Shown here piece by piece: positions 33,984-64,000 of a DNA stretch of 64,000 nt. The notes under the pieces were generated by a model. The model was not told the DNA's origin. It worked only from the letters and a program-made list of their open reading frames with translations, and made no database searches. The position numbers and the translations under genes are program-made. This DNA is from Convolutriloba macropyga (lineage: Eukaryota): assembly GCF_964194025.1 (NCBI RefSeq), contig NC_134477.1, forward strand, positions 7,564,001 to 7,628,000, given 5' to 3'. Within the stretch, counting starts at the first letter, position 1; each line of letters starts with the position of its first letter.

Positions 33984-34306
33984 GTTTTGTATCTGAAATA
34001 AGAGAAGCAAGCGCCTCAAACTATTTTTCCCACTTACAATTTTTCTTATAACTTGAATTATTAAATAGTTCCTTTTCGAAATTTGAATGAAATATTGGTC
34101 TTGTAGTGGAGACTTCTAGCATGAAGATCTTAGAAACAAGCCTTGTATGTTGTGCCGAGATACCATATATTCAAACCTGCAGATACATGTCATCTCATAG
34201 TAGTCAAATGCTCATTAACTGGAACGCGCCAATCTCGCTTTTCTCTCTTCCTTGTTAAAGTATAGTCTTAATGCTCTTTGACTCCGTGGTATCAATTGGT
34301 TATATA

Positions 34307-40729: not shown

Positions 40730-41260
40730 GCAATTTCCTGCTGTGCTGGAACTGCGCTTTTCTTAGAAAGAGAGAAAGTCATGTAACTAAGTCGCTCAAT
40801 TAGTCAGTCATCTTTTATTGGGAAATTACGCTCAAGCAGTGAGGTAATTTTTGCGGTGCTCAAGCTCAAAAAGGGAGGCAGTCATTTATTTACTACGCTC
40901 TATTAGACAGGTATCTTTTCCTAGAACATTACGCTCAAACAGTGAGGTAATTTTTGCTGTGCTCAAAAAGAGAGGCAGTCATTTATCCAATGCGCTCAGT
41001 TTGTGAGGCATATATAATTAGGAAATTACGCTCAAGCAGTGAAGTAATTTCTGCTGTGCCCGAAAAGGGAGACAGTCATTTATTTACTGCTCTGTTAGTG
41101 AGACATCTTAGCTTAAGAATTTACGATCAAACGGTGAGGTCACTTATGCTGTGCTCAAAAAGGGAGACAAGTCATTTAATTACTGCGCTCAATTAGTAAA
41201 GCGACTGACCTTAAGATATTACGCTCCAACATTTAGGTGGTTTGAGATGTGTTCAAGGGA
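40730..41260. repeat. Degenerate tandem repeat, ~100-bp unit, about 5 copies
   Basis: Recurrent TTACGCTCAAGCAGTGAGGTAATTT...GCTGTGCTCAAAAAGGGAG.CAGTCATTTA at ~40826, 40928, 41025, 41120 and 41218. Confidence 0.85.
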
Positions 41261-43895: not shown

Positions 43896-46659
43896 TTTTT
43901 TCTGTCTAATTGCTGTATGGTTTTGTTCAGGTTATCTGTTTTTCCTGTTTGGTAATAATTTTTGCTTATTGTTTCAATAGTTTGCAGTTTTGAACAGTTT
44001 TAATTTCTCGGCAAGATTAAACTGCACTATCAAAGAGAGCCCGTGTATTGTTGCGCGCAAGAGTTTTTAGTGTTACTTGAGGTTGAAAAGCTGCTTTTTC
44101 TAATTCCGTTGTCTCATATTTGTATATTATGCTTTGAACTGCATGCAGTGTAGTGCAATGGATGAGAATTTTTGATATGGTCAGCCTATATGCTGATAAA
44201 GGGTTAATTTAATTTTTTCACAAGAAATTTTGAAATTTTCTTTGTTAAATGAGCAAAAATTTCTCAGACCCGAGTAGGATTCTGTTGGTGTTGTGATATT
44301 AGTGAAGGTATGGTCTGAGTTTCTTTTATCCTAAATTTTGTTGAGTCTGTTGGACATCGCAGATGGTCGGAGAACGTCATTTTTTTAAGGAAATACAAAT
44401 TGAGAAATTTTTATAACCATCTTTTGATTCTACGGTTACTACTTGACGTTTTTGTCTTTTCTGCAACCAACAGCCTAAATACGAAGTTTTGTCTACTCTT
44501 TAAAGTGGCCTCTGAACTAGAGAGTGTTTGACTATAATTCCTCTGTTCTGTCTTGCTTTACCTTTTGTAAAGATTGAAAATTCCGAAACTTCGATGTCTC
44601 TCTGCAATGAAAACAAATTTAATGTTGTGTTGTTATCTTGTTTATGTATCTGTGTATGTGTATGCGAATGAACACCATCCACTTTCAAGCAAAAAACGTT
44701 GTACACGCATCTACAGCTCATAGACTTTTCTAAAAGGCAGTGGTTTCTTGCAAGAGGTTGCGATGTTTTTTTTTCTAGGCCTACTTGCACGATAGATTTT
44801 AATAAAATGAAAACAAAGACGGGTGTACAAGGTATTTTTTGTTTACAAATATGATATTAGTTACATAATTAAATATAGGTAATTAGGTTTATATAGATAT
44901 AGGTTACTTCGGATTGAGACCCTTTTTACTTCTGTTACTTTGTTCTTTGTTAGAAAGGTTGTACTTCAAAACACACAGTTGCTGGCAAACAATCCTTTTC
45001 TTGTCATTTTCCTAAACTATTTTCCTTCTCTTTTTGAATTTTGTACTATTTTATAATGTTTTCGCACTTTTTCTGTTCTCTTCCATTTTTTGTGAATTTT
45101 GAACTTTTTCCTCTCTTTTCTTGCGTATTCGTTGGTGGGTTGTAGTTCCTGTTCTAAAACAAAGAAAACATTAAGTTATGTGAATAAAAAGGGAGTACAA
45201 AGGTACTCCTTGTCTTTACGTTATTTTTTTTCACTGTCTTCACTTAAAATTTTAGATTTTAAATTTCATATCAGATGCTTTAGTTGCAGTTCGTTGTTTC
45301 GGGGTCACCAATGTTGATTAACTTCCTTATAAGATCAATTTGGCAACAGTGAATTCACACAATTTGGTTTTAGTGGTATGTTAGCATGGAAACATATGAG
45401 CTAAAGTTAGAAGTCAAAGCCTGCAGAACAAGCCAAATTAAGAGCCATTGAAATATTAAAGCTTGAGCCTCAACATTGTACAATTTTCAGATGATACTTG
45501 GCTTAGATGTAATGGGACAGGAAATAGTTGAACCGGAAAAGGTACGGAGTTTTTTCACTGAAGCAACAATTTATATACAAAGGAACAGTTTACTCTAAAG
45601 GCAAAAAACGAACCAATTCGATGATAAAACAACCATGATGAAATAGCTGTTTTAAAAATAAAGAAAACTATACGTTTGAAAAACATACACAATTTAGGAA
45701 TGTTAAAATTGAATTTGATTAGAAAGCTTTATGGGATGGTCAAATGAACTATAATCTATATTGTAGGGCCCCTGTTACTTGTTCAGTTTAGCTGATAAGA
45801 TATCAAAGTATTTAAAAACGAAGGAAAGTTTCTTTAATCTACGTGCTCTATGGCTCTTGTTTTCTACTGGATTTTGTCTTCAATTCCTATAAGACGAAAA
45901 ATAAGACGTCTGATTCGGCTAATTAAATGAGGAGACAGTTTGTTTCCTTTGCAAGAAATATAACCAAGCTAGAGATCTTCTAATGCTTGAAGTATAACTC
46001 CTCGTACCGTAACGTCTTTGTTCAGGATGAATTGGAAAATTTTAAAAACTAGGCTGATTGATTCCTTTTTTTCTAATGAAGGTTTCCTAAAATTTTGTTT
46101 AAAAAAAACTAACGAATGCTTGGATGAATTGTAGATAAAAAATTTTGGTGCCAGTGTCTTACGGCCATAGATTTTACTTTTCTGGTGAATGTGCTATGAG
46201 TGAAAACTATTCAAACTTTTGACCATTGAAAATCTTCAGCATACCATGAGTAACTCAGACTCAATCCGTGCGCAGGATTAGCGGGACGTGAACTGTTAGC
46301 TCAACAGAACCATGTCGGCGACAGAGAATTTCGATATTTTTGTGGCTCATTGTCAGTCTTTTTGTTAAAAGTAGAGGAGTTTCAGAAGAAATTAGAGACG
46401 AACTTTCACTGTTATTACCTGTTATTAATACAAGATGATACGGGACAATGGGTGACTTACATCCGGGGCGCAAACTTAACCAAGACAGGCCGGCCGTAAT
46501 TGGCTTTTAAAGTTAAAATTTGGGACGCAAAATTCTTGAATAATTTTTTTGCTGTGAACGCGTTGAAAGTGTTGAACTGAGGTAGATTTGTCACCAAATT
46601 CAATGCAATCACAGCCAAATTATGCAAGGATTTTTACCGTTAAAAAATCCAACATCAGA

Positions 46660-46699
46660 ACGCTAGTAAGCACCGATCTTCAAAATATCGGCTCATAAG
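46660..46699 (+). repeat. Left 40-bp flanking direct repeat (long TSD-like)
   Basis: ACGCTAGTAAGCACCGATCTTCAAAATATCGGCTCATAAG, identical to 62582-62621. Confidence 0.95.
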
Positions 46700-46812
46700 A
46701 GTAGTATATAATACCTACGTAAAGAAAGGGGGGTTATCATTCGACTCTTAACCACAGGATAATAGGTAGTGGCGGTTAAGTGGGAATAGGATAGGCGGGA
46801 TAAAATCTTTCC
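46700..46812 (+). repeat. Left terminal inverted repeat
   Basis: 46701-46812 is the reverse complement of 62471-62583 with one substitution and one indel in the G/C run. Confidence 0.96.
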
Positions 46813-47024
46813 GCCGCTGTTTATTGCCGTTTGGATTGTTCTATTCCGCCGTTCTTGCTAGTTCTTTCTGGTCGTTTGAATTTAACGCTACATGTAAAAA
46901 GTAGTCTCATTGCCCTAAAAGAGGGGAGGGGCTTATTATGTGATATTTAGACGTGTGATTAAGTGGTTTTGGTCAGTTGTTAGCAAAAATTGATCATTAT
47001 TGGGAGAATGTGTGCATAGATCAA

Positions 47025-47201
47025 ATGGCAACTATAGCAACGCTTGATTTGAAAAGTATTCACGAAACTTACAAGGAAATCGAAAAAGAATATTCACAAT
47101 ACGGTAAACGATTTTTATACTTTTTAGCCACTTGTTTGCATTTGGATCCGGATCTTGATTTGGATATTGCGTTGATGTTGCGGCCGTTGAAGTTGAAATA
47201 G
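47025..47201 (+). CDS. Small hypothetical viral protein (58 aa)
   Basis: ATG at 47025 in AAAATGG-like context; first ORF of the co-oriented gene block; no recognisable motif. Confidence 0.4.
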   Translation: MATIATLDLKSIHETYKEIEKEYSQYGKRFLYFLATCLHLDPDLDLDIALMLRPLKLK

Positions 47202-47249
47202 AAGCTTTCAAGAAGTATCTTTCTCTACTGGAGTACTTTCAATTGTACC

Positions 47250-47504
47250 ATGTCTTTACAAGAGAAAATGAAAAGGTTGAAACTAACCCCTTTACGTACG
47301 CCCAAGCGTGCAGTACCAGTTCTGATGTCTCTGGACGATGAGACTCTTCCCGATGACATCAAGCAGCTGATTAAAGAGAACAATGTAGAGTCAATTGTTT
47401 TTAGAGATAAACAAGATTCGATGAATGCAAACTATACAATCACTTACAAACAAGGAGACGAAGACTCTGGATATGTTTCTTATGAATTTTTTATATTTAA
47501 ATAA
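47250..47504 (+). CDS. Small hypothetical viral protein (84 aa)
   Basis: ACCATG start, protein-like composition, co-oriented with the block. Confidence 0.55.
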   Translation: MSLQEKMKRLKLTPLRTPKRAVPVLMSLDDETLPDDIKQLIKENNVESIVFRDKQDSMNANYTITYKQGDEDSGYVSYEFFIFK

Positions 47505-47558
47505 TTATGTAAAAATTCCTGGAAAGCAATTCATTTTTTTGAACAATTTTATTTCACA

Positions 47559-47834
47559 ATGAGTCAAACCGAAGATCAATTAGATTCGGGTGCAGGCATA
47601 AACGACTTGGTTTTTGACGCCGAGCACCAAGAAAGACAATCTTGGAGGTTTTGCAATTCGAGATTGCCTCGATCAGAGGTTGTATACTTTACACAAATCA
47701 TTATAATAATTTTTCTTATAACTGTATCTCTCACCAAGTTGGTTTTTTTCAGTCTTGACTGTGAAGAATCCACATTTTGGTTTTCACTTCTTTCTTGTAC
47801 AGTTGGATACGCTCTTCCAAATCCAAAGTTATGA
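47559..47834 (+). CDS. Small two-TM membrane protein (91 aa)
   Basis: Two hydrophobic segments (VVYFTQIIIIIFLITVSL; FWFSLLSCTVGYALP); its stop overlaps the ATG of the ATPase (ATGA). Confidence 0.8.
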   Translation: MSQTEDQLDSGAGINDLVFDAEHQERQSWRFCNSRLPRSEVVYFTQIIIIIFLITVSLTKLVFFSLDCEESTFWFSLLSCTVGYALPNPKL

Positions 47835-48560
47835 ATAAAGTTATTTCTACCAATGACCGGTTGTTCATGGCTGTTTGGGCCGTCTTGCAGCGGAAAAACT
47901 GAGCTCATTTTCAAAATGTTATTAGTTGGCACATTTTTCCCAGAGTTTCAAACAATTTATTATTTTTATCAGCATGATCAGCCAAAATTCCAATCGTTAG
48001 AGAAGAAACTGAACATACATTTTAAAAAATTCTCCAATTTTGAGCTCATTTCAGAGTTAGAGAACTGCCTTCTTGTGTTCGATGATTCATGTGAAGAAAT
48101 TTTTAATGACAAAGAATTTTCCAAATTAGCAACCGCAGGGCGACATAGAAACATCAGTGTAATTTATGTTAAACACAATTTGTTCCAGCAAAGCAGATGG
48201 TCCAGAACAATTGATCTAAACACAACACATATCATATTGTTCAAATCACCCCGTGACACACAACAGATTAGTTTTATTGGTCGACAGTTGAATAATGCAC
48301 AATTTTTAAAAGAAAGCTATGAGCTCGCAACCAAAGAACCGTTTGGTCATTTATTAGTTGATTTGGATCCAAAAACATCAGACGTCTTGCGCTACTGTTC
48401 AAATATTGTTCCTCCAGGACCATCAATTTTTTATCTGCCATCAGCTAAAGCCGTTATCACAAATTTGAGCGATGAGAGAGAAAGAAGTTTGTATGCTGGG
48501 GCGGCTGCTAGACATATCGGATACAAAACTAAAAGAGAAGATCGAGAGAGCTCCAAATAA
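47831..48560 (+). CDS. FtsK/A32-like DNA packaging ATPase, probably frameshifted near the N-terminus
   Basis: Walker A GPSCSGKT, Walker B LLVFDD, GRHRNISVIYVKHNLF. The natural-looking start MNKVISTNDRLFMAV (47831) is out of frame with GPS at ~47876; the ORF track uses ATG 47853. Confidence 0.92.
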
Positions 48561-48771
48561 ATTCATTAAATTCCTTTGCGAATGTTTGCTCAACATTGTC
48601 AATGGTAATGTTCCAATAAGAAAAAGTGTTGTAGAAGGTTATGAAAAATCATTCAGAAAGCTATTGTCTAGACAAACAAGTTTGAAAGAAAAGAGGCAGA
48701 TTTTTGCTAGAGAAACAGATTTGGTCAAAATTGTTGGTTTCGCTTGTTATCGATATTTGACAAAATCATAA
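48493..48771 (+). CDS. Conserved small Polinton protein (LCECLLNIVNGNV motif)
   Basis: CECxxNxxxGNV motif recalled from small Maverick proteins; overlaps the ATPase end; stop overlaps the next ATG (TAATG). Confidence 0.75.
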   Translation: MLGRLLDISDTKLKEKIERAPNKFIKFLCECLLNIVNGNVPIRKSVVEGYEKSFRKLLSRQTSLKEKRQIFARETDLVKIVGFACYRYLTKS

Positions 48772-49520
48772 TGCGCACCGAAGAATTCATTTTAATTCCA
48801 AAACGAATGTTTGCTTCACATCAACCGGTAAAAAAAGAAGTTTTGGACAATCCCCTTTATAAACAGAAAGCTGCACAGCTGTCTCTTTTGCAAAGAAACC
48901 AGTCCAACTCAATGGAAAAACCAGAGAAAGCATTTGAACCAGTTGAGACTGCAAACAAACTGATGATTGAAACAGCAGAAGAGGAGAAAACAGAACCCAT
49001 GAGCGAAGACAGCGAGATTGAACCGGTAGTGAAAAAACAAAGAAAAAGCGACGATTTCACCTCTATAATGATAGAGCTAGAAGTTATGAATAAAAACCAA
49101 ATCAAAAGATCAAAAATCATACTTGACTTGATTAACCAATCTGAAACAGTCACCATAGAGTCGAACGACGTTCTTCACGTTAATAAAGAAACACTGGGCA
49201 TCAAAGCTTTAACATTTTTGTACAATCTACAGCAACCAACTAAAAAAATTGACATTGAAAAATACTCAAAAATTTTATTTGCTCTTAATATCTCACCTCA
49301 TCTTGTTGCAAATACACATGCCAAGCAAATCTTGGAAGCCTCGTCTGAAAGTGAACAAGAATTTTTCCCAAGTAGAGAACAACCCAGTCAACAAGAGTTC
49401 TCCTCTACTGGAGAACGACTCAGTGGCTCAAAACCAACCCGAAAAAAATATAAAGAAGAAACGGACCAAACGCCAGACAAAGAAGAGACCAGTCAGAAGA
49501 TGTGGTCTTTCTTTTCCTGA
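48771..49520 (+). CDS. Polinton hypothetical protein (249 aa) upstream of integrase
   Basis: Long ORF starting at the TAATG overlap; charged low-complexity regions flank a globular core. Confidence 0.75.
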   Translation: MRTEEFILIPKRMFASHQPVKKEVLDNPLYKQKAAQLSLLQRNQSNSMEKPEKAFEPVETANKLMIETAEEEKTEPMSEDSEIEPVVKKQRKSDDFTSIMIELEVMNKNQIKRSKIILDLINQSETVTIESNDVLHVNKETLGIKALTFLYNLQQPTKKIDIEKYSKILFALNISPHLVANTHAKQILEASSESEQEFFPSREQPSQQEFSSTGERLSGSKPTRKKYKEETDQTPDKEETSQKMWSFFS

Positions 49521-50524
49521 AGTAAAAAAATTGGATCAGTTGTATTTAAAAGGACCAGCTTCGTATGGAAGCATAAAACGACTACAGACTCAAAGCAAGC
49601 TCCCTATAGGCAAAGTCCTGTCCTATTTGGAGACAAAGCCGTCTTTCACAAAGTACCGTTCAATTCGATTAAAATTTCCTAGGCTTAAAGTTTTTGTAAA
49701 AGACATTAACGAAATTTGGTCTCTAGATTTGGCACACGTTGATAAATTAGCAAATTATAACCGCAACATCAAGTATCTCCTAGTAGCGGTTGATTGTTTG
49801 TCAAGATATTTACGTTGATAAATTAGCAAAGTATAACCGCAACATCAAGTATCTCCTAGTAGCGGTTGATTGTTTGTCAAGATATTTACGAGTGGAACCT
49901 TTAAAAACAAAGTACGCAACAGAAGCAGCTGAAGCATTCAAAAAGATGATCAAAAACAAACAGCCCGAAAAAGTATGGGTTGACGATGGCACAGAATTTC
50001 TGGGAGAATTCAAACAATTGTGCAACAAACGCGGAATTCAGTTATATAGTACTTTCAGTGAAAAAAAGTCAGCTTTTGCAGAGAGGAACATTAGATCTCT
50101 CAAAAAGATAATTCATCGGTATCTCGAAGAAAAGTGGACCTATAGCTACATTGACCAATTAGATCAATTTGTGAAAACAATCAATTCAAGAGTCAATCGA
50201 GTAACTAAAATTGCTCCCAACAAAGTTACAAAAAAAGATGTGCCACGACTAGTTTCATTGACAGTCCAAACAAGCTCAAATCAGAAGCCCAAGTTTTACA
50301 TTGGAGACTTTGTGAGAATAGTTAAAAAAGATAAAGCATTCAGGAAAAGTTACAAGCAATCGTTCACAGACGAAGTCTTTGAAATAACGGGAATACCGAC
50401 ATTAAGCCCACCAACATACTCCTTAGTCGACACAGACAAAGAACCAATTCAAGGAAAATTTTATCAACCAGAATTACAAGTTGTCAGGCTCCCTCTCGTT
50501 GAAAATGTCCAACAACCGGTTTGA
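49500..50524 (+). pseudogene. Retroviral-like (rve/DDE) integrase disrupted by a 76-bp tandem duplication
   Basis: WSLDL, LVAVDCLSRY, VWVDDGTEF, AERNIRSLK, GKFYQPELQ motifs. 49736-49811 is repeated at 49812-49887, causing a frameshift and a stop at 49816-49818. Start codon uncertain. Confidence 0.93.
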
Positions 50525-51389
50525 AGACGAGTTTACAGTTCACGTTGTTTCATCCGCTTCAATGGAAATATTTGATTCAAACACACTTGCATCATTTCGA
50601 AATTTTTTTAATGACGAAATTCAACTTGCAGGTGATTGGAGAGTGGCGTTAAGTGAAATCATATTCCCAACAAAAATAGAAAACATAGTAAACGGAGATC
50701 TAATTGTGTACAACTTAAAAGACTATGAAGATTCCCAAAAGATGTCTTCGGGAGCTAATGTTATTTCTAGACCTTATAGTGGACAACAATTTAGTTTTAT
50801 GCCAGGAACCTTTGATACAGTGGCACAACTTCTTGCTACAATTAAGCGAACAATTGGACTGCCCAATTTTTCTTTCAGAGAGTTGAAGAGCTCTGGAAAA
50901 TATGAAATTTTATTTGGCAAATATGAGGGAATTACATTTCCCAGCGAGGAAATTCCGAGCATTATTGGATTTAAGGGTATTCCTGACGGTAATGGAATAC
51001 ATATTGGGTACAAAATGATTCCCAATGCGAACAGGTTTATGAAAAGTGATGATACGAAAGCTTATTATGGGGAGTTCCCAGCTGATCTTTGTGCTGGAAA
51101 GCATCTAATTTTCATCTACACTAACATAATTGAATATCAATACGTTGGTGACACTAAGGCTCCTCTTTTCCGAGTCATTGATTCAAAACAACGTCTGAAA
51201 AATGGTAGTGTTTGTGAGCTTGAGCCAACTCATCGGATAGTTTTTACAAATTTAGACTATAAGAAGCTCCTAACCAACACAATTCAATCGATTTCAATTG
51301 AACTGAGAACGGAAACAGGACAATTAGTTCCCTTTTCGGGAACTGGAAAAGTTATTCTAACACTACAATTCAAAAAATTTTCCTCCTAA
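50505..51389 (+). CDS. Minor capsid protein (penton-like)
   Basis: FTVHVVSSASMEIFDSNTLASFRN...LAGDWRVALSEIIFP and FIYTNIIEYQYVGDTKAPL...ISIELRTETGQLVPF...LTLQF are typical of Polinton minor capsid proteins. Confidence 0.88.
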   Translation: MSNNRFEDEFTVHVVSSASMEIFDSNTLASFRNFFNDEIQLAGDWRVALSEIIFPTKIENIVNGDLIVYNLKDYEDSQKMSSGANVISRPYSGQQFSFMPGTFDTVAQLLATIKRTIGLPNFSFRELKSSGKYEILFGKYEGITFPSEEIPSIIGFKGIPDGNGIHIGYKMIPNANRFMKSDDTKAYYGEFPADLCAGKHLIFIYTNIIEYQYVGDTKAPLFRVIDSKQRLKNGSVCELEPTHRIVFTNLDYKKLLTNTIQSISIELRTETGQLVPFSGTGKVILTLQFKKFSS

Positions 51390-51390
51390 A

Positions 51391-51807
51391 ATGGATTCTT
51401 ATTATGCGAATCAAGCAACGTCTTTGCCTCACTTCTCTGGACATTATCGTCAAAGAGGAAGTGGTTTTGGAGCCCTAGCTGCAGGCATTGGACGTGTTGC
51501 GCTGCCTTTAGCACGTCGTTTCATTTTGCCTACAGCGAAGCGTATCGGGAAAGAGCTTTTGAAACAAAGTGTTCCAGAGATTTTGGATGTAGTCGGAAGC
51601 AAAAAATCTCCTAAACAGGCGTTTAAAAATACAATCGCAAAAACTGTTAAAAAACAGACTGGGGGATCTCGACGAAATACTTCACGTCGGAGGAAGTCAA
51701 GTCGAGTCAAGCCACAGAAAGCGATCAACAAACGCAAAAAAAACCATTTCAACGCACAGAGCTCCAAAAAGAAGTCGGTCAGATTTTTTTGCCAGAGTGA
51801 ACGATGA
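51391..51807 (+). CDS. Basic virion core-like protein (YYxxQ...QRGSGFG motif)
   Basis: QRGSG and QTGG motifs (candidate adenain sites), an amphipathic segment and an R/K-rich tail; lies between the two capsid genes. Confidence 0.8.
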   Translation: MDSYYANQATSLPHFSGHYRQRGSGFGALAAGIGRVALPLARRFILPTAKRIGKELLKQSVPEILDVVGSKKSPKQAFKNTIAKTVKKQTGGSRRNTSRRRKSSRVKPQKAINKRKKNHFNAQSSKKKSVRFFCQSER

Positions 51808-53114
51808 TCGCTAATTTGTTACCATCAGAAGCAACTCACAGTTCTTTGGATTTATTCGAAAAACCTTCTCTTTTAATAACTTTCGATGGTAGTTTTTGTG
51901 AAAAGTTGGGCCCAGTCTACAGTCCAAATGGACCCATGTTAGAATTTGAAGTCGCCGGTGACCGAAATAATTTTATTGACTTACAGAAAATTTTCTTGGA
52001 AGTAAAATGTAAAATTGTCCAGTCATCAGAAGCTGATTTGAGATATGACGCAGGAGCAGCAACAGATGTTACGAAGACAGATGCTCCCTATTTTTGCAAT
52101 AATGTGTTACATTCACTCTTCTCTGACTGTACAGTGTCTGCTAATGGACTAAAAATTTCAAACGCTAACGGAAACTATGCACATAAAAGTTTTATTGAAA
52201 CAGAATTTTCACATAACAAAGATGCAAAAAACACCTGGTTGGCATGTCAGGGTTACTCCTACGAAGAAAATCCAGGAGCGCTGTCAACTGCGGAAGTGAA
52301 CAGAAGGAAAGCCTTAGTGAGGCAATCAGCTGAGTGCACATTCTACGGTAAAGTTGCAGTCGACTTTTTCACCTGTGACAGACATTTGCTAAGTGGTGTG
52401 ACACTTCGCATTGCATTTAGACGGTCAATAGATGATTTTGTTATAATGTCTGACGATGCTGCCAAGCACTACAAAGTAAAAATTGTCGAAGCTAATTTGT
52501 ATGTGCGCAAGATGACATTGAACGATGATGTTGTATCGGCTATTGAAAAAACTTTATTAACAAGTCCAGCTTCGTATCCCTACCTGGAGACTCTAACAAA
52601 AACGTTTCTGGCGTCAACGGGTCTCCACAGTTGGAAACAAGAAGATATTTTTGCCAGAGAACCGATTCGTAGACTAGCAATTTGTCTGAACACTAACGAA
52701 GCGTTTCTTGGTAACAACAGACAAAATCCATTTAATTTCCGCAAATTCAACCTTGAGCAGATTTATATTTATCGAAACGGTTTACCTGTGGCAGACAGTC
52801 CGATATCAACAAGTGATGACAAACGTCTTTACTTTAACACAATATCCGATTTAGCTTACATCGACAATGGTCATGGAATAAGTTTGACAGATTACCCAAA
52901 TCATTTCATAATGGTTTTTGATTTGACCAGCACCCAACAAGCATCCCACGATTTTATTCATCCTGAGCTCACAAATTCGTCAATTTCTATTGAGTTGAAA
53001 TTTTCTGCGGCCTTACCGAACAATATAGAAATATTCATTATTGGCGAAAAAGCTAGCACAATATTTGTTGATAGTGCAAGAAGGGTATCAAAGAATCACA
53101 TTCTGACAAATTAA
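51804..53114 (+). CDS. Major capsid protein (double jelly-roll, hexon-like), 436 aa
   Basis: SSLDLF, LEFEVAG...FIDL..IFLEVKCKI, NNVLHSLFS, YAHKSFIET, NPFNF and FDLT motifs of Polinton MCPs; intact ORF. Confidence 0.93.
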   Translation: MIANLLPSEATHSSLDLFEKPSLLITFDGSFCEKLGPVYSPNGPMLEFEVAGDRNNFIDLQKIFLEVKCKIVQSSEADLRYDAGAATDVTKTDAPYFCNNVLHSLFSDCTVSANGLKISNANGNYAHKSFIETEFSHNKDAKNTWLACQGYSYEENPGALSTAEVNRRKALVRQSAECTFYGKVAVDFFTCDRHLLSGVTLRIAFRRSIDDFVIMSDDAAKHYKVKIVEANLYVRKMTLNDDVVSAIEKTLLTSPASYPYLETLTKTFLASTGLHSWKQEDIFAREPIRRLAICLNTNEAFLGNNRQNPFNFRKFNLEQIYIYRNGLPVADSPISTSDDKRLYFNTISDLAYIDNGHGISLTDYPNHFIMVFDLTSTQQASHDFIHPELTNSSISIELKFSAALPNNIEIFIIGEKASTIFVDSARRVSKNHILTN

Positions 53115-53116
53115 TA

Positions 53117-53548
53117 ATGGATGAAGATGATATTAATGGTTTAATCCAAGGTTGCAAAACTCTTAAATATAAATTCCATGGTGTGTTTGCGGCCAACAAC
53201 TTTCCGGATAAAATGAACAGAAACAGCTTCCTTATTGTTAATGCAGCGACTGCTGAAAATATTGGCAGCCACTGGTTTTTATTATGCAGAAAAAACAATC
53301 AACTTTTGTTTGCCGATCCCCTTGGTCAGCCCATTTCATCGTACAAACACCTATATCAAAGAATTGTTTCCGTTGGCAGCAATCACAACATCTATCAACT
53401 CTTGGAGATTCAACCAATTCAAAGAGCAAACTCTAAACTTTGTGGACTTTTTTGTATTTATATTGCTCATTTTGTTTTCAATGCTCAAAAACTTGTAAAT
53501 ATTAGCGATAATGAATTGATTCGTTTCGCTTTTCATATGATGTTCTAA
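53117..53548 (+). CDS. Adenain-like cysteine maturation protease, 143 aa
   Basis: FHGVFAAN, catalytic GSHW, FADPLG and IQ...LCGLFC. Confidence 0.93.
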   Translation: MDEDDINGLIQGCKTLKYKFHGVFAANNFPDKMNRNSFLIVNAATAENIGSHWFLLCRKNNQLLFADPLGQPISSYKHLYQRIVSVGSNHNIYQLLEIQPIQRANSKLCGLFCIYIAHFVFNAQKLVNISDNELIRFAFHMMF

Positions 53549-53578
53549 CCTTACTAACTTGAGAAATTTATTTTTTTT

Positions 53579-54283
53579 TCAAAACTTTACTTTTTCTTCA
53601 TACACAAAGCGAACACTCAATAAATCAGAATCAATATTCAATTTTCCATATCCACTCATAAAAATATCCATAATTTGACAAAAAGCGCCAGAATGAGGAC
53701 CATACAAAATTGTTTCAACTCTTCGTAAAGTTTCACTATTAACAAAATCAGTTTGAACTTGTTTCGATGGAGGCCGGGCATTGTAGATAGTTTTTTGAGC
53801 AACTACTGGCATCTTGGCACTCGGTTTGAGATTGACATTTGTTTGTTTTGCAGAGCTGCTTTTCGATAAATTGTTGTGGTTAGCAAAAGCTGGCAGTCGT
53901 TTGCGCACTGACTGTGAATCGGTTTTTTCTCCCGAACCGTTGAATTCGATTGCCAATTTGAGTTTTGTAAAAACGTCTCCATTAGTCTCCAAGTTTGGTG
54001 CAGTCCAAAACAAGAATTTGAAAGCTGTATAAACACAAGGCACAGGAAAGCTCTGATATCGTTTCACTGTTTCGTTTTCAAAAGTAGTTGTATCAATCAG
54101 AACGTGATAATGACTGTTTACTAAATTGCAAAATTCGGAATCAAAATGTGCACACACTGCATAAAAATTTCCAATAGAAAAGCTAGGTTTTTCTTCAAGA
54201 ATGAGAAATTTGAACTGTTTCTGAAATTGTTTAAAGTAATTTGGAGAACGCTCAAACATCGCCTCAACCATCGTTGTTGGCAA
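53579..54283 (-). CDS. Accessory protein with an HUH-endonuclease-like N-terminal motif
   Basis: Intact 234-aa ORF; YAVCAHFD-x9-SHYHVLID. The function call is tentative. Confidence 0.6.
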   Translation of the reverse strand: MPTTMVEAMFERSPNYFKQFQKQFKFLILEEKPSFSIGNFYAVCAHFDSEFCNLVNSHYHVLIDTTTFENETVKRYQSFPVPCVYTAFKFLFWTAPNLETNGDVFTKLKLAIEFNGSGEKTDSQSVRKRLPAFANHNNLSKSSSAKQTNVNLKPSAKMPVVAQKTIYNARPPSKQVQTDFVNSETLRRVETILYGPHSGAFCQIMDIFMSGYGKLNIDSDLLSVRFVYEEKVKF

Positions 54284-54581
54284 CTTCTTTTTGAATTTTT
54301 GGTTTCTTCGCTAGTGGTGGTTTTGTTGTTGACAGCTGGTCAGCCACTGAGTTCTGTATTTTGCTAGCTGAGCTGACCAAATTTTCAAACTCTCCAAGAG
54401 TTAGAGAAATTCTCTGTTCAAACTCGTAATCGTCTGTTGCTTTTTTGAACAATTTCAGAAATACATATGTCCCTGTCCTTTCATAGGTTTTCAGCGTTGC
54501 TCTGATTAAGCGCTTATCAGTTTTGGAAATATCGAAATAACAATCTCCAAACTCTGTGTCTTTAGTGGACGTGAAAGGCAT
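54264..54581 (-). CDS. PC4/Sub1-like ssDNA-binding protein (105 aa)
   Basis: FDISK..RLIRATLKTY..TGTYVFLKLF...RISLTLGEFENL...I...V follows the PC4 strand/helix pattern (GISLxxEQWxxL); C-terminal NLS-like PLAKKPK. Confidence 0.65.
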   Translation of the reverse strand: MPFTSTKDTEFGDCYFDISKTDKRLIRATLKTYERTGTYVFLKLFKKATDDYEFEQRISLTLGEFENLVSSASKIQNSVADQLSTTKPPLAKKPKIQKEVANNDG

Positions 54582-54706
54582 AGTGTGCAACTTGTTTTAT
54601 TATTTTCAAGTGTTATAATGTGTAAAACTCCAACTCAATGGGGCGGCAAGTTGGGTTTAAACAAGTGTCGTCAAACTGCCTAATTAAATCCAAATGATTT
54701 GTGAAT

Positions 54707-54743
54707 ACAGGCTCAAGTACGCCTATGGCGTACTTGAGTCTGT
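54707..54743. other. 17-bp stem, 3-nt loop hairpin
   Basis: ACAGGCTCAAGTACGCC-TAT-GGCGTACTTGAGTCTGT; one G-T pair, otherwise perfect. Confidence 0.9.
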
Positions 54744-54796
54744 CTGTTGTTCACATATTGCATAATTAATTTCAGCTGTGACCTTAGATAAGACAA

Positions 54797-55101
54797 AAAA
54801 CATATGTGAACCTAGGTGTGTACTTGGACCAGCAGTGCACTGTACACTTTTTATTGGAATTATATGCGTACCATATGTTTTGAGAACACAAATGTGAGCC
54901 ACCCTGGTTGGGCATTTGAACAAGCAGTGCAGTGTACACTGTTTATTGATATTATATGCGGACCACATGTTTTGGTTCTATAGAGAAAACAGATGTGACC
55001 CTAGGTGTGTATTTGGACCAGCAGTGAAGTGTACACTGTTTAATGGAATTATATGCGGACCATATGTTTATAACTTGGAACAGATGTGACCCTGGGTGTG
55101 T
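54797..55101. repeat. Degenerate ~90-100-bp tandem repeat, about 3.3 copies, with internal palindromes
   Basis: Units at ~54800, ~54888, ~54990 and partial 55081: ATGTGA.CCTAGGTGTGTA.TTGGACCAGCAGTG...GTACACT...ATTATATGCG.ACCA.ATGTTT. Confidence 0.9.
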
Positions 55102-55499
55102 GATATAATTAGAAGCACAAGTGAACCTACAGCAGTAAGGAAATTCTGATAAGAATAAACATGCACCAGCGTACAATGAAATGCTAATAATAAAATACGC
55201 TCTGGATAAGAACTGAGTTAGTACACACTATAAAGTGTATCGACCCATGTATAATAACAAAATTTAGAGCATATATCAGAGCACATACACTACCAAAATT
55301 AAAACCATATTTGACCCCAGATATAATTTGTTGAATTACACGTTGTGCAATATTACTTTAAAAATAGTTATTCATTTTCTTTAAACCTTGCGTTCAGTGC
55401 ACTTTGCTTTCTTTCAACAGTTCGTTACCAGACAAACAACTACCAACAGTCTTCTATCAAATTGGTTTTAGTTTCTTTCTCAAAATTTGTACAAAAATT

Positions 55500-56195
55500 A
55501 TGTCCGTTCAAATACTTGCTGAATCTGTAATTTCCTTGGAGCGAACATTGGTTTATCAGACAGTGTTCGAAAACTTTGTTGTGCTTATTCAACAGAAGAG
55601 ACAAGGCGATGTTTGGCAAACTTACCAGCACTGCTTGATACCCAAGCTTTTCATTAACGCAATTGCTTCGTTACCAGAGAAGACAGAACCAGCAGATTGC
55701 AGTGTTATTACATCAGGAGGACATTTACCTCCAAAAACTTTGCCAACATTTCAACATCTTGGCATGGAGTCATTACCTGACGACGTTAAACGAATTTTGT
55801 TTCGTTACGATTGCGACTGTGTGCCTCTGTTTGAAAACCAGCTAGGGGCTTATCAGGCTTGCGAAAACTTAGCTGACATGTGGGGCATAAAGTCATCACC
55901 TTGCTCCCCAGAAAATCAATCCCAATTGGATTCAGCCAGCTTGCCAGTAACACCAGCAGTTGATCCGAGTCCCAGTTTGACACCGACATCTAGTCCATCT
56001 CTCTTTGCGGGAATTCACAAGAACAATTCTACGGCTCTGTTCAGTGACAACCAGTTTGATACAAAGTTACTGTCAGCTACACAATTTCAAACACCAGAAC
56101 CAGCACGTGTTTTTGGTGTCACAGACACGCCAAAGATTTGCAATGCACCAAAGAAACGGCTACCTGAGAATACTTTAATGGACTTATTTGATTAA
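55500..56195 (+). CDS. Accessory hypothetical protein (231 aa) with S/T-P-rich C-terminal half
   Basis: Intact ORF, first ATG at 55500, divergent from the PC4-like gene. Confidence 0.7.
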   Translation: MSVQILAESVISLERTLVYQTVFENFVVLIQQKRQGDVWQTYQHCLIPKLFINAIASLPEKTEPADCSVITSGGHLPPKTLPTFQHLGMESLPDDVKRILFRYDCDCVPLFENQLGAYQACENLADMWGIKSSPCSPENQSQLDSASLPVTPAVDPSPSLTPTSSPSLFAGIHKNNSTALFSDNQFDTKLLSATQFQTPEPARVFGVTDTPKICNAPKKRLPENTLMDLFD

Positions 56196-57722
56196 CTTGA
56201 AAACTAAACTTAATGGAGCACCACAAAACTTTTATGTAGTGAGATGCTAACTTGATTTTGTTTCAAGAATGTGTGATTTCAACTTTTTAAAAGCTGAATT
56301 TAACTTTTTAAATCTGTTTTATAGCTTTAAATCTGCTGAGTCAAAGAAATTAAAACATTGCTACTGATCAAGTTCGAACATGTTCAGAAAAGACTTTCAT
56401 TATAACGTAAACATTTGTTTCCTAACAAACACTCAATTATTACAACTACTATGACGTGGTGAGATTTTTCAATATTATATCCAGAAATACTTTTCCCAAT
56501 CTGCAAAACTTTTGTTATTATTATATACATTAAACATAAAGTTTAGAGATATAGCCATATATGAGAGTATGCGGTATTGACGCTAATAACATGTTAACTC
56601 CATGCCACAGCTGTAGCATGGATTGAATTCCAAATTCAATTCATAAGTCGAAGAACTGTTCAAAAAATAAAAAATAATCAAAGAAAATATTTCGAAAAAA
56701 TGCATTTCAAACGTCAAATTTTGACACTTAATTCAGTAGATGCCCTCTTCAGCTTACACTAGAATCAACTCTCATTTGTTACTTGGGGATCAATTGAAAA
56801 AAAAGAGCATGTTAGTTTGAAAAAAAAAGAAAAAAACTCAAAAAAAAAAATTTTTTTAACACATGACCTCTGACCTTTGACCCCAAAAAAGAGGGTTCCA
56901 AAAAATACTTGGGATGAAACTGATTGTTCAGTAAGACTCAGCATACTCTAAAGTACAAAACATCTCATCACACTCGTCAAATTTTACTCGTCCGTTATGG
57001 AGATAATTAGCCTCTAATTAACGACTAATTAAGGGTTAATTAACCTAATTACTAATTACTGAAAAAAAATTCAAAATTTTGCAACGGTTTTGTACTCACT
57101 GCTTGATGCCCGACATTATTGCTCATAAGGATCATCATCAAAAAACGGCTCCTTCACCGATTTTCGAAACATCTGGCAATTAATGTCACATTAACATCTG
57201 GCATTAATTAGCATATGAAGTACCCTAAGGAAAGATGTTAGATCGGTTTTCTTTAAATTTTTGGACTTATTGGGCCCTCAGTGTAAATTTATCTCATAAC
57301 AGCTGTCATCAAAAAAGGCCTCAGAAAAAAGACACATGTTTGTGTCATGTAACTGTCATGTAATTGTTAATTAATGACTTGATTGACAGAAAAACAAACT
57401 TTTTTTCTGTTTATTTTTGAGCAATTTTTTTATATGGGTCCTATGTTTTTCGGCACGGGGAGCAATTTTGCTCATCACACTTAAGAACGTAGGACAACTC
57501 TAACCATCCGTAATTGAAAATGCATAAAATAGCGCTTTTTATTACAATTTTGAATATTAGCATGTTTTTCCAGGTTCTCAAAAAAAGTTTTTTGACACAA
57601 ACGATGATCAGCAATACTCGGTAGGGTTCCCTGTGGTGGTATATTTTGGCATACGATTGCAATGGAGAGTTGAAAACACATCTTTTTCTCTCAAAAGTAA
57701 CAAAATTTCGAAATAAAGGTAT

Positions 57723-57775
57723 GCGCCAAAACCGACCAATCAGAAAACAGCATTTCAAAACTTCGAATTTGGCGC
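57723..57775 (+). promoter_or_regulatory. Candidate pPolB promoter: two inverted E2F sites, CCAAT box, CHR-like element
   Basis: GCGCCAAA 57723-30, CCAAT 57736-40, TTCAAA 57754-59, TTTGGCGC 57768-75; 120-170 bp upstream of the ATG. Confidence 0.55.
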
Positions 57776-57894
57776 CTATGCAGTACTGTAGTCTCTAATA
57801 CTGTAAACCCGAGAAACCATTTCTTGTTCATTCGTTTCTACTGTTCGTACTCGAGTTTAACAATTCGTTCTTACTAAAGTTAGACAATTCAAAA

Positions 57895-60800
57895 ATGGGT
57901 TTCCAGTGTCGTTATTGTGATTCTATTCTGAGTACAAAAGGAAATCGCTCCAGGCATGAGCATAAATTCCATCCTGATGAGATTGGTTTACCCGTATATC
58001 AATGCTCATTATGTGAGTTTACTTGTCGGAAGATTTCTTTGCTCGAAGAACACATGAAAACTGCACACCAACGATTCACCAATTGCTGTCAAAGCTGCCT
58101 ACTCGGATTCAACGATTGCCATCTTTACGTACAGCATATGACTTCCGTTCATCACTTACCCGTTCTAGGTGAACAATTTCAGCCTCGAGACACTCCGTTG
58201 GAAAGTGCATTCCATGGAGTACTGAGATCGTTCGAGTCAACAGCGGCCGAAGAGTCCAACGATCTCGAAAACTTTATGCGGATACAAAAACCCAAAATAG
58301 ACACTCTAATAAGTGAGCAGTTGACCCAGGGTCCTCAAAAAGTTCAACTGTGTGCAAAATTGCGGCTTGTCAAAGTTATGTATGATGAGCCAGATACGCC
58401 AGAAGATGACCGTATTGAAATATACGCAAACTCTTTGATGACTCCTGTCTATGCAAACGGACTGTCGGATGAAGCGTATTGGCAAATGGTGGAGAAGATG
58501 ATGAGCGTATTGACAACATTCAACTCTTTGGGGAGTGGTTGGACACTCGAAAAAGTTCTCAAAGTTGACGTCAAATTCGCACGTTTCAGACCAATTCTTG
58601 GTTCATCATACATCGCGTTGCCGTCAGAAATTGCCAACTGCAGAGGATTGCTCAACGTTAGGAACCACGAAGATCGAGATTGCTTCAGGTATTGTTTTGT
58701 GGCCGCTTATCACATGTATCATCAGATAAGTTTAGATAGAATTGATCGTAACTATCAAACCGACAAAACTTCACCAACTACATACAATCAACCAGGACTG
58801 CATCAACCTCTGGGCGATTTTACTATGCCCATGGGCTTTGCAGACATTCCTCAATTTGAAAAACTCAACAACGTTCAGGTAAACGTGTTTGGATACGATA
58901 ACGGCCAGTTTTTCCCTCTAAAAATTTCGTCATACAGCTCAGATTTTGTAATGGATTTACTTTTGCTGTACGACTGTGACCGTCATCACTACGTCCTGAT
59001 TACAAACCTGGTGAAGGTTGTTTGCTACGTGCGAGGATTTGATTACAGATTCTCCTACAAAATTTGTCGAAACTGGTTTTTGATTTGTCGAGAAGGACTT
59101 GAAGGTTACAACCTACATCTCAATAACTGTTGCAAAAATGCGCCTGCTGTTATTCATATGCCTTCAAGTGAGAACAACTCATACAAATTCACGAACTTGG
59201 CTGCTACATGGTTTGTCCCTCTTGTTATCTATTTTGACTTCGAGTCTTTCTTACGACCCGTGTCTTCTTGCAAGGGACCAAGTGATAAAGCCTTTACACA
59301 GGTCAAGGAGATACATGAACCGTGTGGCTTTGCGCTAACAGTGATAGATCACCACTCATCAAGGCCAATCTTTCATCATGTAGACAGTTCTCCTGCTTGC
59401 ATGACAAATTTTGTCAAAATGCTTCACAAACTAGCCAGAGATATTCATCAGCAGAAAAGGAAGCACCCTTTCTTCAAAGGCGATAGACGAAACTTGGGAA
59501 AGTCTAACGCTACGCACTGTTGGATTTGTGAAAAATCGTTTTCAGAAACGGAAGATCCAGAGAACACAATTGACCTGGACCATTGCCACTACAGTGGTAA
59601 ATTCTTGGGATGGGCACATGAGAAATGCAATCGCTTGAGACGAAATATCAATTTCACCCCTGTTGTGGGTCATAATATTCAAAATTATGACTTACATCAC
59701 ATTTGCTTGGCACTGAATAACTGCGAGCCAACCACAACCATCAGCGTCATACCAGCCACCGACGAAAAATACATATCAATGACATTTGGTGTGCTTATTG
59801 ACACTTTCGTAACGGAAAAGGGAAAAACAGTGAAAGTTTACGAATATCTTCGATTCATAGACTCCTTCAAGATGATGAACAGTTCTTTAGAGAAACTTGT
59901 TGAAATTTTACCCGATGACCGTTTCGAAATAATGGGGGCAATGTTTTCTACATTATCTGATGCTAACCTTCAGCTACTTAAACAGAAAGGCTACTACCCT
60001 TACTCTTATGTGACTAGTCGGTCCAAGTTCAGTGACACCAGTCTACCGCCACTGAACAAGTGGGGTAACACTCTGGACGGAGGGGCAGTGAAGGTAACGG
60101 AGACTAATTTACAACATGCACGCAGGATGTGGGAAATTCTGGAATGTGGAACACTGCAGGACTATCATGACTCATACTTGAAGCTCGACTGTGCACTACT
60201 CGCATGTGTTTGCGAATTCCATCGACAGTTGAGTTTCGATACGTATAAACTGGACTGTATGCACTTCTTCACCCTACCCAATATGGCTAAGGAAGCATCA
60301 CTTAGAATCTGCAAAGCCAATGTCGAGTTACTGACTGAGCGCGACCACTTGGACATGATTGAACCCGCAATTCGCGGTGGAGTCACATCTGTCTTTGAAA
60401 GTCGGCGCTTCACTGCAAATAACTCCTATATTCCTAACCATGATAGCACGGAGGAATCCTGTTTTGGATTCTGTGTCGACGCTAATAACCTTTATGGTGG
60501 CGTAATGCAATTAGAGAAACTACCGCTCGCCGAATTTGCGTTCAACACAGATATTCAACTTCAAGAGATTTTGGACACCGCCGATGACGCTAGCATTGGA
60601 TACTTTGTAGAGGTCGATATCTCTTATCCGCCGAGCCTTCATGATGAGCATCGCGATTTTCCGTTGGCACCCACAAAAGACATGGTTGAAGATGAGTGGT
60701 TGAGCGATTACCAGATCGAATTAAAAGAACAACACAATCTCCCATCTTCCAAAGTAAAGAAACTCCTGCAAACGTTCTTTGATAAAGAGAGATACGTGGT

Positions 60801-62240
60801 CCACTACAAACTGCTGAAACTTTATGTCCAACTCGGCTTGGTAATCAGGAAAGTTCACAGAGTGCTTCAATTTCGACAAGAAAACTGGCTGTCGCCATAC
60901 ATTACACTAAATAGTGAAAAGCGGCAAGTTGCGTCAAACAAGTTTGAAGAGAACTTTTATAAACTGATGAATAATGCAGTTTATGGTAAAAACTGCGAAT
61001 CGAAAAGACGCAGAAATAAAATAACAATCTCACGAGATGCCGAGCATGCGCTGAAGATAATATCCAGATTTGAGTTTGATCGCTATATGATCTTTGGGGA
61101 GAATTTAGCAGCCTTGACCACACGACCAAAGTCCATTTATTGGAACACTCCCACTATTGTGGGAGCGACTATATTAGATCTTGCAAAATTCCACATGTAC
61201 TCATTCCATTACAATGTCATGCGACCCAACTTTAATTGTCGCCTTCTTTACAGCGATACAGATAGTCTCCTTTATGCGATAAAAAGCGACGATTTTTATA
61301 CAGAGTTATCGCAGAAGCCTCAGTCAGTATTAAGTCATTTTGATTTCTCAAATTACCCACCCAATCACTTTCTTTACGATACCACTAACAAAAGAGTCGT
61401 CCTCAAATACAAGGACGAATTCGCCGGCGACTATATTACTGACTTTATCTGTTTGAAGCCGAAGCTGTACTCCATCCTGTCAAAAAGTAAGTTTATTCTC
61501 TCATAAAACAAAATTGTTAGTTGTTGTATAAAAATTCGTATTGGGTTAATAGGCATCTGGAAGGTGTTAAATCGTATTATATTTACATAGGGGGTTAGTA
61601 ATTATAATAGCACCTAATTTTTCTCATTTCTTTCTTTCTTTTAGGTTGTCGAAAACTTTCAGCAAAAGGGGTGACGAGGGCCGCACAACAACATCTTCGC
61701 CACGTTGACTTCCTAAACACTCTCAGCACTGGAAACCACCTGCGCTCAGAGAACACCAGGATTGTGTCCGACCACCACAGGCTGCAGACAGTTACTACAA
61801 ACAAAATTTGTCTGTCAGCTTTTAACAACAAGCGCTATATACTACCCGATGGCACAAAAACCCTCCCGTTTGGCCATTATGAAATTGTCGATTATGCTAT
61901 CGATGAAATTGATTGGAATAACGACGATGTGGAATGGGATTATGACGATTTTAGCGACTTACTTTTGAGCTCTAGCCCAGATTGGGATAACAGTTTTGTT
62001 GTACCACATTCCTCTCCGGATACCACCCAAAGCTCCAACACATGGCAATCACCAGACCCCGGTTTTGTCGCTGCTCAGAATATAAATGATTCGGATATTG
62101 AAAGTAGCGATATCGTTGATTTCGATGCCAGTTTTGAAGAAAACTCTACGCCCGATAATCCGTTCATTAATTTTGAGGCAGAAGAAGCAAGTGAAAGCGA
62201 GTCAGAGGGCCCAGTGTGCAAAACTGCAAGGCGATATTAG
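57895..62240 (+). CDS. Protein-primed family B DNA polymerase (pPolB), two exons (57895-61486, 61645-62240), ~1395 aa
   Basis: YFDFES, GHNIQNYD, FIDSF, KGYYPY, YLKLD, DANNLYG, KLMNNAVYGK, YSDTDS and LKPKLY in exon 1; SAKGV...KR...TLPFGHY in exon 2; three N-terminal C2H2 fingers; EndoVII-like CWIC...DHCH...AHEKCN insert. Confidence 0.96.
61487..61644 (+). other. Spliceosomal intron (158 bp, phase 1) in pPolB
   Basis: GTAAGT donor, CTAAT branch site at 61614-18, long pyrimidine tract, TAG acceptor; splicing restores ILSKSCRKLSAKGVTR. Confidence 0.9.
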
Positions 62241-62470
62241 TGTGCATAATTAAATTTAATTGCCCAGAGAGAGACACGCAAAACTGAACCAGTATTGATT
62301 TTGCATGCAGTGTGATATTTGGTTTTAATTTAATTTGTTTGAGTGTTTTGAAATCAAAAGCAAGCGGCGAGACAGAAGGCAAAGTTAAAGGGAAACAAAA
62401 GCGGCAAGACTCAAAAGGGAATGATTGAATAGGAGAGGGATATAAACAGCGGCATGATTGAATAGGAGAG

Positions 62471-62583
62471 GGAAAGATTTTATCCCGCCTATCCTATTCC
62501 CACTTAACCGCCACTACCTATTATCCTATGGTTAAGAGTCGAATGATAACCCCCCCTTTCTTTACGTAGGTATTATATACTAC
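62471..62583 (-). repeat. Right terminal inverted repeat (lacks the final T)
   Basis: Ends ...GGTATTATATACTAC; the perfect complement of the left end would be ...ATACTACT. Confidence 0.96.
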
Positions 62584-62621
62584 GCTAGTAAGCACCGATC
62601 TTCAAAATATCGGCTCATAAG
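62582..62621 (+). repeat. Right 40-bp flanking direct repeat
   Basis: Identical to 46660-46699; the first two bases (AC) are shared with the TIR end. Confidence 0.95.
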
Positions 62622-64000
62622 TCCCTTTGTTGGACAACTGGCAGTGATGCTTGCTAGCTTCCTTTTCCACACACCAAAAAATTCGTTGTACATCATTAAA
62701 AAACAGATTCAGACATCGCAAGAGGTCACTTTTAAATCGCGTGGTGTTGAATACGTTTAATACGGAAAATTGTGACAAAATGAGTTTTTTGATTTGCACA
62801 AAAATTTTAACCCCAATCTCGCACCTCCTCCAGACTCAATAATTCCCACTCCCTCGAACCCATTTTAACTTAATTTTAGTGCATCCTGACCTTAATAATA
62901 GCTCACAAAAAATAATTCATCTAAGAACAGCGCTAAGATTAGCTCTTAATTATATCAGAACGCCCTATGACACACTAAATTGTTTAAAATCGATGCTGAT
63001 ATAGACAGTAAATTATGTCTTTAATGTCGACTGCTAATTGGCGGGATGAAATGATAGAGGGGTGAATAAATCGGGGTTAAATGATAGGGGGTTAAATGAA
63101 TAGGGGTGAAATGAAGTAGAACCGTCAGATGAATGCTACATTAGAAGTTAAAAATACGCTGAAAGTACGCTTTAAAACAGATAAATCTTTTCAGATCAAC
63201 GCGCTAAAAAACGTTATATTATCAAAGATCAACTACAAGAACTAAGCCGTAAGAGTTTTATATGTAATATCAACGCTAAAGTAGACGTTATCTTGAGTAA
63301 GATGAATGCATTCACTGCCTGTCAAAAATAAGTTGAACGTTTTCATGACATTCTTACATATTTTGGCGTTTCTTATGTCTCTGCCCAGCTTACTTAGGCT
63401 AGGATTTAGTTTTCATAGATTTTCTATAATGCAGGGAAAATGAGATACATTTCTTCAGTAAGATCAGAGAAAAAGTGGCAGCGGACCACCAATGATTCAT
63501 TTTGATGCCTTTTTATGAAATTGCTATGAATCGTCGATTAAAATTACTTATCATCAACGCTAGATTAAACGTTAAAATGCGTTATATCTACACAGACAAA
63601 CCAATAAATTTTGTAAGACCAACGCTAAAAGACGCTAAATTATCTCAGATCATCGTTGCAAATTCAGCTGTAATAATATCTATTAACAAAGTTTGTCAAT
63701 TTGTCAATTTGTTGACACAAACGCTCAATTATGTAATACGAACGCGTTCAACGCTAATCTAACAAATGCTAACTACTGATCTTTTAACAAGGCTCAAAAA
63801 ATTTAGAGAGTTCATATCCAGACTTTTGTGCGTTTTGATGTTTTCGGAGTAGTTTTGAACGCACGAAACCCCCTCGTGCGTTCTTCTTCGGTCTGTGCAT
63901 ACTTGAGTCCGTCTGGGTTAAACTCTTTCAGTACATTTTTTCATATTTTTGCGTTTCTTAGCGCTCACGTCGCAGTTCGGCTAATTTAAGCTAAGGTTTA

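Follow-up and report, generated by a model that had tools for sequence, protein, structure and literature searches.

A Polinton flanked by a perfect 40-bp direct repeat, in a family whose insertions duplicate 6 bp, raises the question of how its two ends came to be joined to the host chromosome. The element lies in a 64,000-nucleotide stretch of the Convolutriloba macropyga genome (NCBI RefSeq assembly GCF_964194025.1, contig NC_134477.1, positions 7,564,001 to 7,628,000 of the forward strand), referred to here as the window; coordinates are given within it, and other loci are named by contig handle and position in Mb. Judged from its sequence the element is a Polinton (Maverick), as the first-pass annotation of the window had proposed: it encodes a DNA polymerase of family B that is protein-primed (pPolB) and a retroviral-type integrase, its terminal inverted repeats (TIRs) end in (AGT)2//(ACT)2, and its family produces target site duplications (TSDs) of 6 bp. 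Our analysis makes it probable that integrase joined only one end of the element, the left, and that a host polymerase joined the right end, giving a duplication of 38-40 bp.

Junctions of the element with host DNA

Sequence comparison bears out the repeat pair: positions 46660-46699 and 62582-62621 are identical at 40 of 40 bases, with mismatches just outside on either side. The 15.9 kb of element between the two copies are bounded by TIRs of ~113 bp. The left TIR (46700-46812, plus strand) is whole and opens with AGTAGT at position 46700, flush with the first 40-mer; this is the original copy of the target DNA, and read contigs connect it to the left flank. The right TIR (62470-62583, minus strand) closes with TACTAC at 62583 and is one T short; as the first-pass annotation had stated, its last two bases, AC (62582-62583), are common to the TIR and the repeat, and the assembly confirms this microhomology. 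The second copy of the 40-mer (62582-62621) thus comprises 38 new bases plus the shared AC, and is seen in the assembly only, bridged by no read contig. Because the AC can be counted in both the TIR and the repeat, the duplication measures 38-40 bp depending on the register (the junction comparison gave registers 37-40), in place of the 6-bp TSD of concerted integration.

Allowing up to three mismatches, the 40-mer has two matches in the whole 1.18-Gb assembly, both at the window locus, and no other copy of the family carries it. It is therefore host target DNA and not element sequence, and the alternative that it belongs to the element or marks a favored target, in which case it should flank other copies elsewhere, is ruled out. 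Exact-core TIR ends that lack the terminal base number only two genome-wide (the window copy and C9:18.63 Mb); a third end without this base, which also has a small TIR deletion, is accompanied by a normal 6-bp TSD. We also considered a whole right TIR, its terminal T mutated to G, next to a 37-bp duplication, which is unlikely since it requires a chance agreement with the target at the new base and at two more; an example of a terminal T changed to A beside a normal TSD does occur at C13:27.44 Mb. A hairpin that sets the length of the duplication was rejected as a general explanation, since the corresponding segments of the siblings do not fold (z -0.5 to +1.2), and folding of the 40-mer itself is modest (8 and 2 of 200 shuffles).

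Duplication lengths across the family

The core of the TIR has 168 matches in the assembly, a count that covers the closer relatives and excludes more diverged ones. A first batch of 39 rows represents 37 insertions, as two rows record an additional right end sharing the same flank, and a second batch contains 28 rows, five of them without a partner in the stretch examined. Together the batches give 60 insertions, 53 with a 6-bp TSD (49 exact, four with one mismatch) and seven without. In addition, 21 unpaired ends were traced ~20 kb inward, leaving out two on C15, three on small contigs and two extra ones on C11. For eight of these a partner end with a 6-bp TSD was found, although one of the eight was a segmental duplicate of a copy already counted and was dropped; for the other 13 a second end was not found within this distance, and apart from (TA)n matches the traced ends revealed no further long duplications. 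The final set of 67 two-ended insertions contains 60 with a 6-bp TSD (at most one mismatch), three with long duplications (40, 42 and 128 bp) and four with none. A 6-bp TSD is thus a family trait, and the window copy is atypical. Long duplications occur in 3 of 67 insertions (95% interval 1.5-12%) and repair signatures in 5 of 67 (3-16%); since the census does not register ends that have lost more than a few bases, the aberrant share may be higher.

Two further arrangements were met in the census. At C3:42.42 Mb and C4:54.32 Mb, two right ends separated by 4-5 kb share the start of their flank, reflecting either a tandem duplication over the junction or a duplication in the assembly, and the diverged copies at C11:42.97 Mb and C11:41.81 Mb consist of two inverted right-hand (polymerase-side) arms with 6-bp TSDs.

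Siblings with patched junctions

The other two long duplications belong to siblings that likewise have one clean end, and these siblings are the evidence that matters most. At C11:25.83 Mb the other end carries a whole TIR, after which come 63 bp of inserted sequence and then a 128-bp duplication that contains one mismatch. At C9:18.61 Mb, in a diverged subfamily, the terminal T is missing from this end as it is in the window copy, and an insert of 34 bp separates the TIR from a duplication of 42 bp with two mismatches. In both cases the insert repeats the first part of the duplicated segment, with 7-mer coverages of 92% (C11:25.83) and 68% (C9:18.61) that were reached in 0 of 5000 shuffles. 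To judge by their patchwork composition, these templated inserts are a signature of host repair. The patched end is the left one in both siblings and the right one in the window copy, which indicates that either end can fail, and none of the three copies with long duplications has its patched junction more than one base away from the TIR tip.

Two of the four copies with no TSD (C1985 and C5:71.55 Mb) have right ends that continue with 10 and 8 bases, respectively, matching their own TIR; at 106 normal ends such a continuation is at most 6 bases long. A search of ~10 kb around the four copies found no hidden long duplication (the right flank of C1985 is only 631 bp long). In the remaining two, at C5:48.75 Mb and C8:28.18 Mb, both TIRs are whole, and these copies are possibly recombinants or target deletions.

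Read contigs and zygosity

Read evidence was taken from four runs (X1-X4) of one study in which the flank is present, recorded as two samples and represented by contigs only; in a further run, X5, none of the query words was present. One X1 contig connects the left flank, by way of the 40-mer, with the TIR, so that the left junction is seen. A 1736-bp contig of X2 joins positions 46000-46659 to 62582-63040 without differences and with a single 40-mer. It resembles the empty allele, but the 40-bp repeat is longer than the 31-mer, and the filled allele would give the same path. Depth is more informative in X3, where the stretch ending in the 40-mer has a depth of 61.2, the right flank 40.8 and the left junction ~31 (the remainder of 133, by subtraction); junction contigs of other copies have depths of 34 and 70. 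A left junction at ~31 against a shared flank at ~61 points to an insertion carried by a single haplotype and supports a real empty allele.

Target-site preference at the clean ends

Normal TSDs of the family have a pyrimidine-purine (YR) step at their center in 35 of 53 cases, compared with a background of 0.226. The preference takes the form of a weak palindrome with a YR center, and C is avoided three bases outside the TSD (2 of 106). At the clean end of the window copy, the hexamer CATAAG (46694-46699) is YR-centered, falls in the top 6.6% of the background by the family matrix and is the likely site of integrase attack. The clean-end hexamer is YR-centered in five of five patched copies (the three long duplications, C1985 and C5:71.55), for which the background probability is 0.0006. 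The corresponding likelihood ratio is ~210 for the five copies and 25 for the three long duplications.

The integrase gene and the age of the insertion

A tandem duplication of 76 bp (49736-49887) breaks the integrase gene of the window copy (49318-50524, plus strand) into two frames; each piece shares 98% identity with a protein of a sibling, a natural sequence with a match to Pfam rve (PF00665, E=4.6e-9). The first-pass annotation had linked this broken gene to the odd junction, a connection that is not borne out. The 76-bp unit is single in 9 of 9 other loci that hold it, making the duplication private to the window copy; an uninterrupted 376-codon integrase frame is present in three of six siblings examined, and two of the three odd-junction siblings whose integrase region was examined have an open frame. 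Because siblings with open frames also have odd junctions, a broken gene is not needed to explain the junction. A second internal lesion, a deletion junction with short filler, was recognized at 47187-47194 (plus strand) by comparison with siblings, as the window copy is a net 916 bp shorter there than three of three compared siblings. The filler resembles the bases that follow it and is another scar of the repair type.

The identity of the two 40-mers had been taken as a sign of recent insertion. This particular argument is weak, as 0 differences in 40 bases bound the divergence only at less than about 7%. Recency itself finds better arguments in the heterozygosity of the locus and in the divergence of 1.1-1.2% that separates the window copy from the three closest of five measured siblings; together these argue that the insertion is probably young. 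The private lesions already present in the window copy weigh on this reading.

How the two ends may have been joined

These observations can be accommodated by a sequence of events that begins with a failed concerted integration. Integrase, probably supplied in trans, would attack one strand of the target at a preferred YR-centered site, producing the flush and whole left junction, and the second strand transfer would then fail. The free right 3' end would lose one T, pair through its AC with the target 38-40 bases upstream of the first join and prime copying of the target segment, after which repair would seal the product to the right flank. By analogy with known repair signatures, polymerase theta would be the likeliest joining enzyme. 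Both marks of a one-ended integration are found at the window locus: a normal integrase junction on the left, where a whole TIR stands flush against a YR hexamer and is visible in read contigs, and a patched junction on the right, clipped, with short homology and a long duplication in the assembly (unbridged by reads). The first-pass annotation had left the choice between host repair and a one-ended, non-concerted integration. One-ended integration completed by host repair is supported, because 6 bp is the norm in 60 of 67 insertions, the 40-mer does not belong to the element, two siblings of like architecture carry templated inserts as well and depth indicates an empty allele; host repair acting alone at both ends is less likely.

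Several observations weigh against this reading. The right junction appears in no contig of any of the four runs, and the X3 depth of the 40-mer, 61.2, lies nearer the range expected for two copies (62-68) than that for three (74-81). The window junction has no templated insert, and its microhomology of 2 nt is of a length often given by chance. The YR likelihood ratio for the window copy alone is only 2.9, the patched-end hexamer at the 38-bp register (GCTAGT) also suits the integrase preference (top 4.5%), and a YR center is also present in the hexamers at the repaired ends of C11:25.83 and C5:71.55. [quoted passage not shown] We regard it as unlikely: the attacking end would have been without the terminal T that nearly all ends keep (two exact-core exceptions), one good hexamer is not rare when three registers are scored, and the templated inserts of C11:25.83 and C9:18.61 could not be produced in this way. 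The missing right junction and the 40-mer depth would also follow if the right junction were an assembly artefact in which the element end was joined to the empty haplotype. There are, however, no Ns at the junction, and the four runs equally fail to show a normal 6-bp right junction, their right-flank contigs being unbroken. X4 lacks the left junction although X1 of the same sample has it, which shows that these contig sets drop such links. Graph cleaning may remove a branch of low depth that lies next to a TIR node of very high depth, which would account for the missing junction. Its absence from the contigs is weak evidence, and a haplotype switch would not create the mismatched duplications and inserts of the siblings; we give an artefact little credence.

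A break that postdated a normal 6-bp insertion is similarly improbable. Here the right TIR end would have been broken and then repaired from the empty homologue or from the left flank, and the apparent heterozygosity of the locus supplies such a template, just as the deletion with filler and the 76-bp duplication show that the window copy bears other repair scars. A random break would nevertheless not be expected within one base of the TIR tip in three of three long-duplication copies, whereas a free tip exists at integration. Least plausible to us is the capture of a linear element at a pre-existing staggered break, with the host joining both ends and integrase taking no part. The broken integrase gene of the window copy would suit such a capture, and duplications arising from staggered nicks followed by end joining are mentioned in PMC7407515, but the whole, flush end at a YR hexamer in five of five patched copies is hard to reconcile with it, and the integrase lesion is private, with open frames in odd-junction siblings.

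Gene content of the element and other features of the window

The remaining genes of the element that could be assigned lie on the plus strand. The pPolB gene (57895-61506) matches DNA_pol_B_2 (PF03175, E=2e-9). Within the capsid module, an adenain-like protease (53117-53548; Peptidase_C5, E=9e-6) scores above its cutoff and an A32-like packaging ATPase (47853-48560; Pox_A32, E=2e-4) is a weak match under the curated cutoff, and both capsid proteins are suggested by language-model features only. A likely double-jelly-roll major capsid gene (51804-53114) has a feature score of 0.98 to a cluster in which PF21738 is assigned to 30% of members, and a comparison of its sequence with the PDB gave no match; a candidate minor capsid (penton) gene at 50505-51389, to be taken as a lead, scores 0.97 to a Sputnik V18/19 cluster (family assigned to 26% of members). 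The polymerase frame stops just past a GTAAGT, and a pyrimidine tract ending in AG and then more polymerase-like coding sequence follow; this segment (61488-61645) has the appearance of a spliceosomal intron close to the 3' end of the pPolB gene. About three 97-bp tandem repeats (54793-55101) occupy a non-coding gap between a minus-strand gene and a plus-strand gene.

Outside the element, a 295-codon open frame on the minus strand (33228-34115) has a C-terminal part that we take to resemble the TFIID subunit TAF13. Broken frames at 38719-40433 (minus strand), resembling the remnant of a long interspersed nuclear element reverse transcriptase, adjoin a 97-bp tandem array at 40767-41197.

Relation to known systems and significance

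Polinton integration is mostly inferred from junction sequences, and the closest parallels to the window copy come from retroviruses. Aberrant proviruses of HIV-1 (type 1 of the human immunodeficiency virus), formed with integrase inhibitors or weak integrase mutants, and of avian sarcoma/leukosis virus (ASLV), formed with a mutant end, have one end joined by integrase and the other by the host; in the model proposed for them, truncation occurs during template search, viral or host DNA is copied, several templates may be used serially, and a duplication or a deletion results depending on the side (PMC5041404). What these proviruses have in common with the Polinton junctions is one normal end and a second end that has often been shortened, where short homology, bases copied from host or viral DNA, sometimes from several templates, and either a long duplication or a deletion of the flank are seen. 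They differ in that the Polinton insertion is natural, apparently germline and free of any drug, in that their duplications reach hundreds or thousands of bases compared with 40-128 bp in the Polintons, and in that the patched Polinton TIR is whole or one base short. Among 15 XMRV proviruses, one (clone C-3) combines a 273-bp duplication with a clipped end, for which its authors favor staggered breaks (PMC2857682). The frequency of 1 in 15 is similar to the 3 in 67 found here, and duplication and clipping likewise occur together; XMRV is, in contrast, a cell-culture retrovirus, and C-3 lost 5 bp including the conserved CA.

Microhomology together with repeated templated inserts is described as a signature of polymerase theta and SD-MMEJ, a microhomology-mediated form of end joining that depends on synthesis (PMC7407515). 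The likeness here, at the level of sequence, consists of break-adjacent microhomology and the small, repeated templated inserts of the siblings; the window copy itself has no insert. The Mavericks/Polintons of PMC8097293 share the (AGT)2//(ACT)2 ends, the TIRs, the gene set and a 6-bp family TSD, but that survey was seeded on perfect 6-bp TSDs, a filter that the window copy would fail. Endogenous mavirus-like elements have TSDs of 1-9 bp (PMC8547959) and some recombinase-encoding Polinton-like viruses have repeats of 7-23 bp (PMC12220804); the supplementary TSD tables of these papers may hold longer examples. A literature search on aberrant Polinton junctions, with most subscription papers outside its reach, returned nothing specific and general reviews at most. 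The event is real but mechanistically familiar: its mechanism is already known from retroviruses, and we found no report of it in Polintons.

Taken alone, the window locus is the scar of a repair event and has no function that is evident, and a long repeat at the flanks does not point to a novel chemistry of transposition. What makes the analysis useful is the family-level rate together with the patched siblings, which show failure products like those of retroviral integrases in apparently germline insertions and at a measurable rate; pipelines that demand a perfect 6-bp TSD miss such copies. A more speculative proposal, which we put forward tentatively and consider rather doubtful, is that one-ended integration followed by polymerase rescue is a regular germline route of wild Polintons, taken in ~4-7% of insertions (3 or 5 of 67) even when both TIRs are whole. 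If this were true, it would suggest that the two ends of a terminal-protein-capped genome become integration-ready separately, and patched junctions could be read, in genome sequence, for the way in which a protein-primed element is passed to a retroviral-type integrase.

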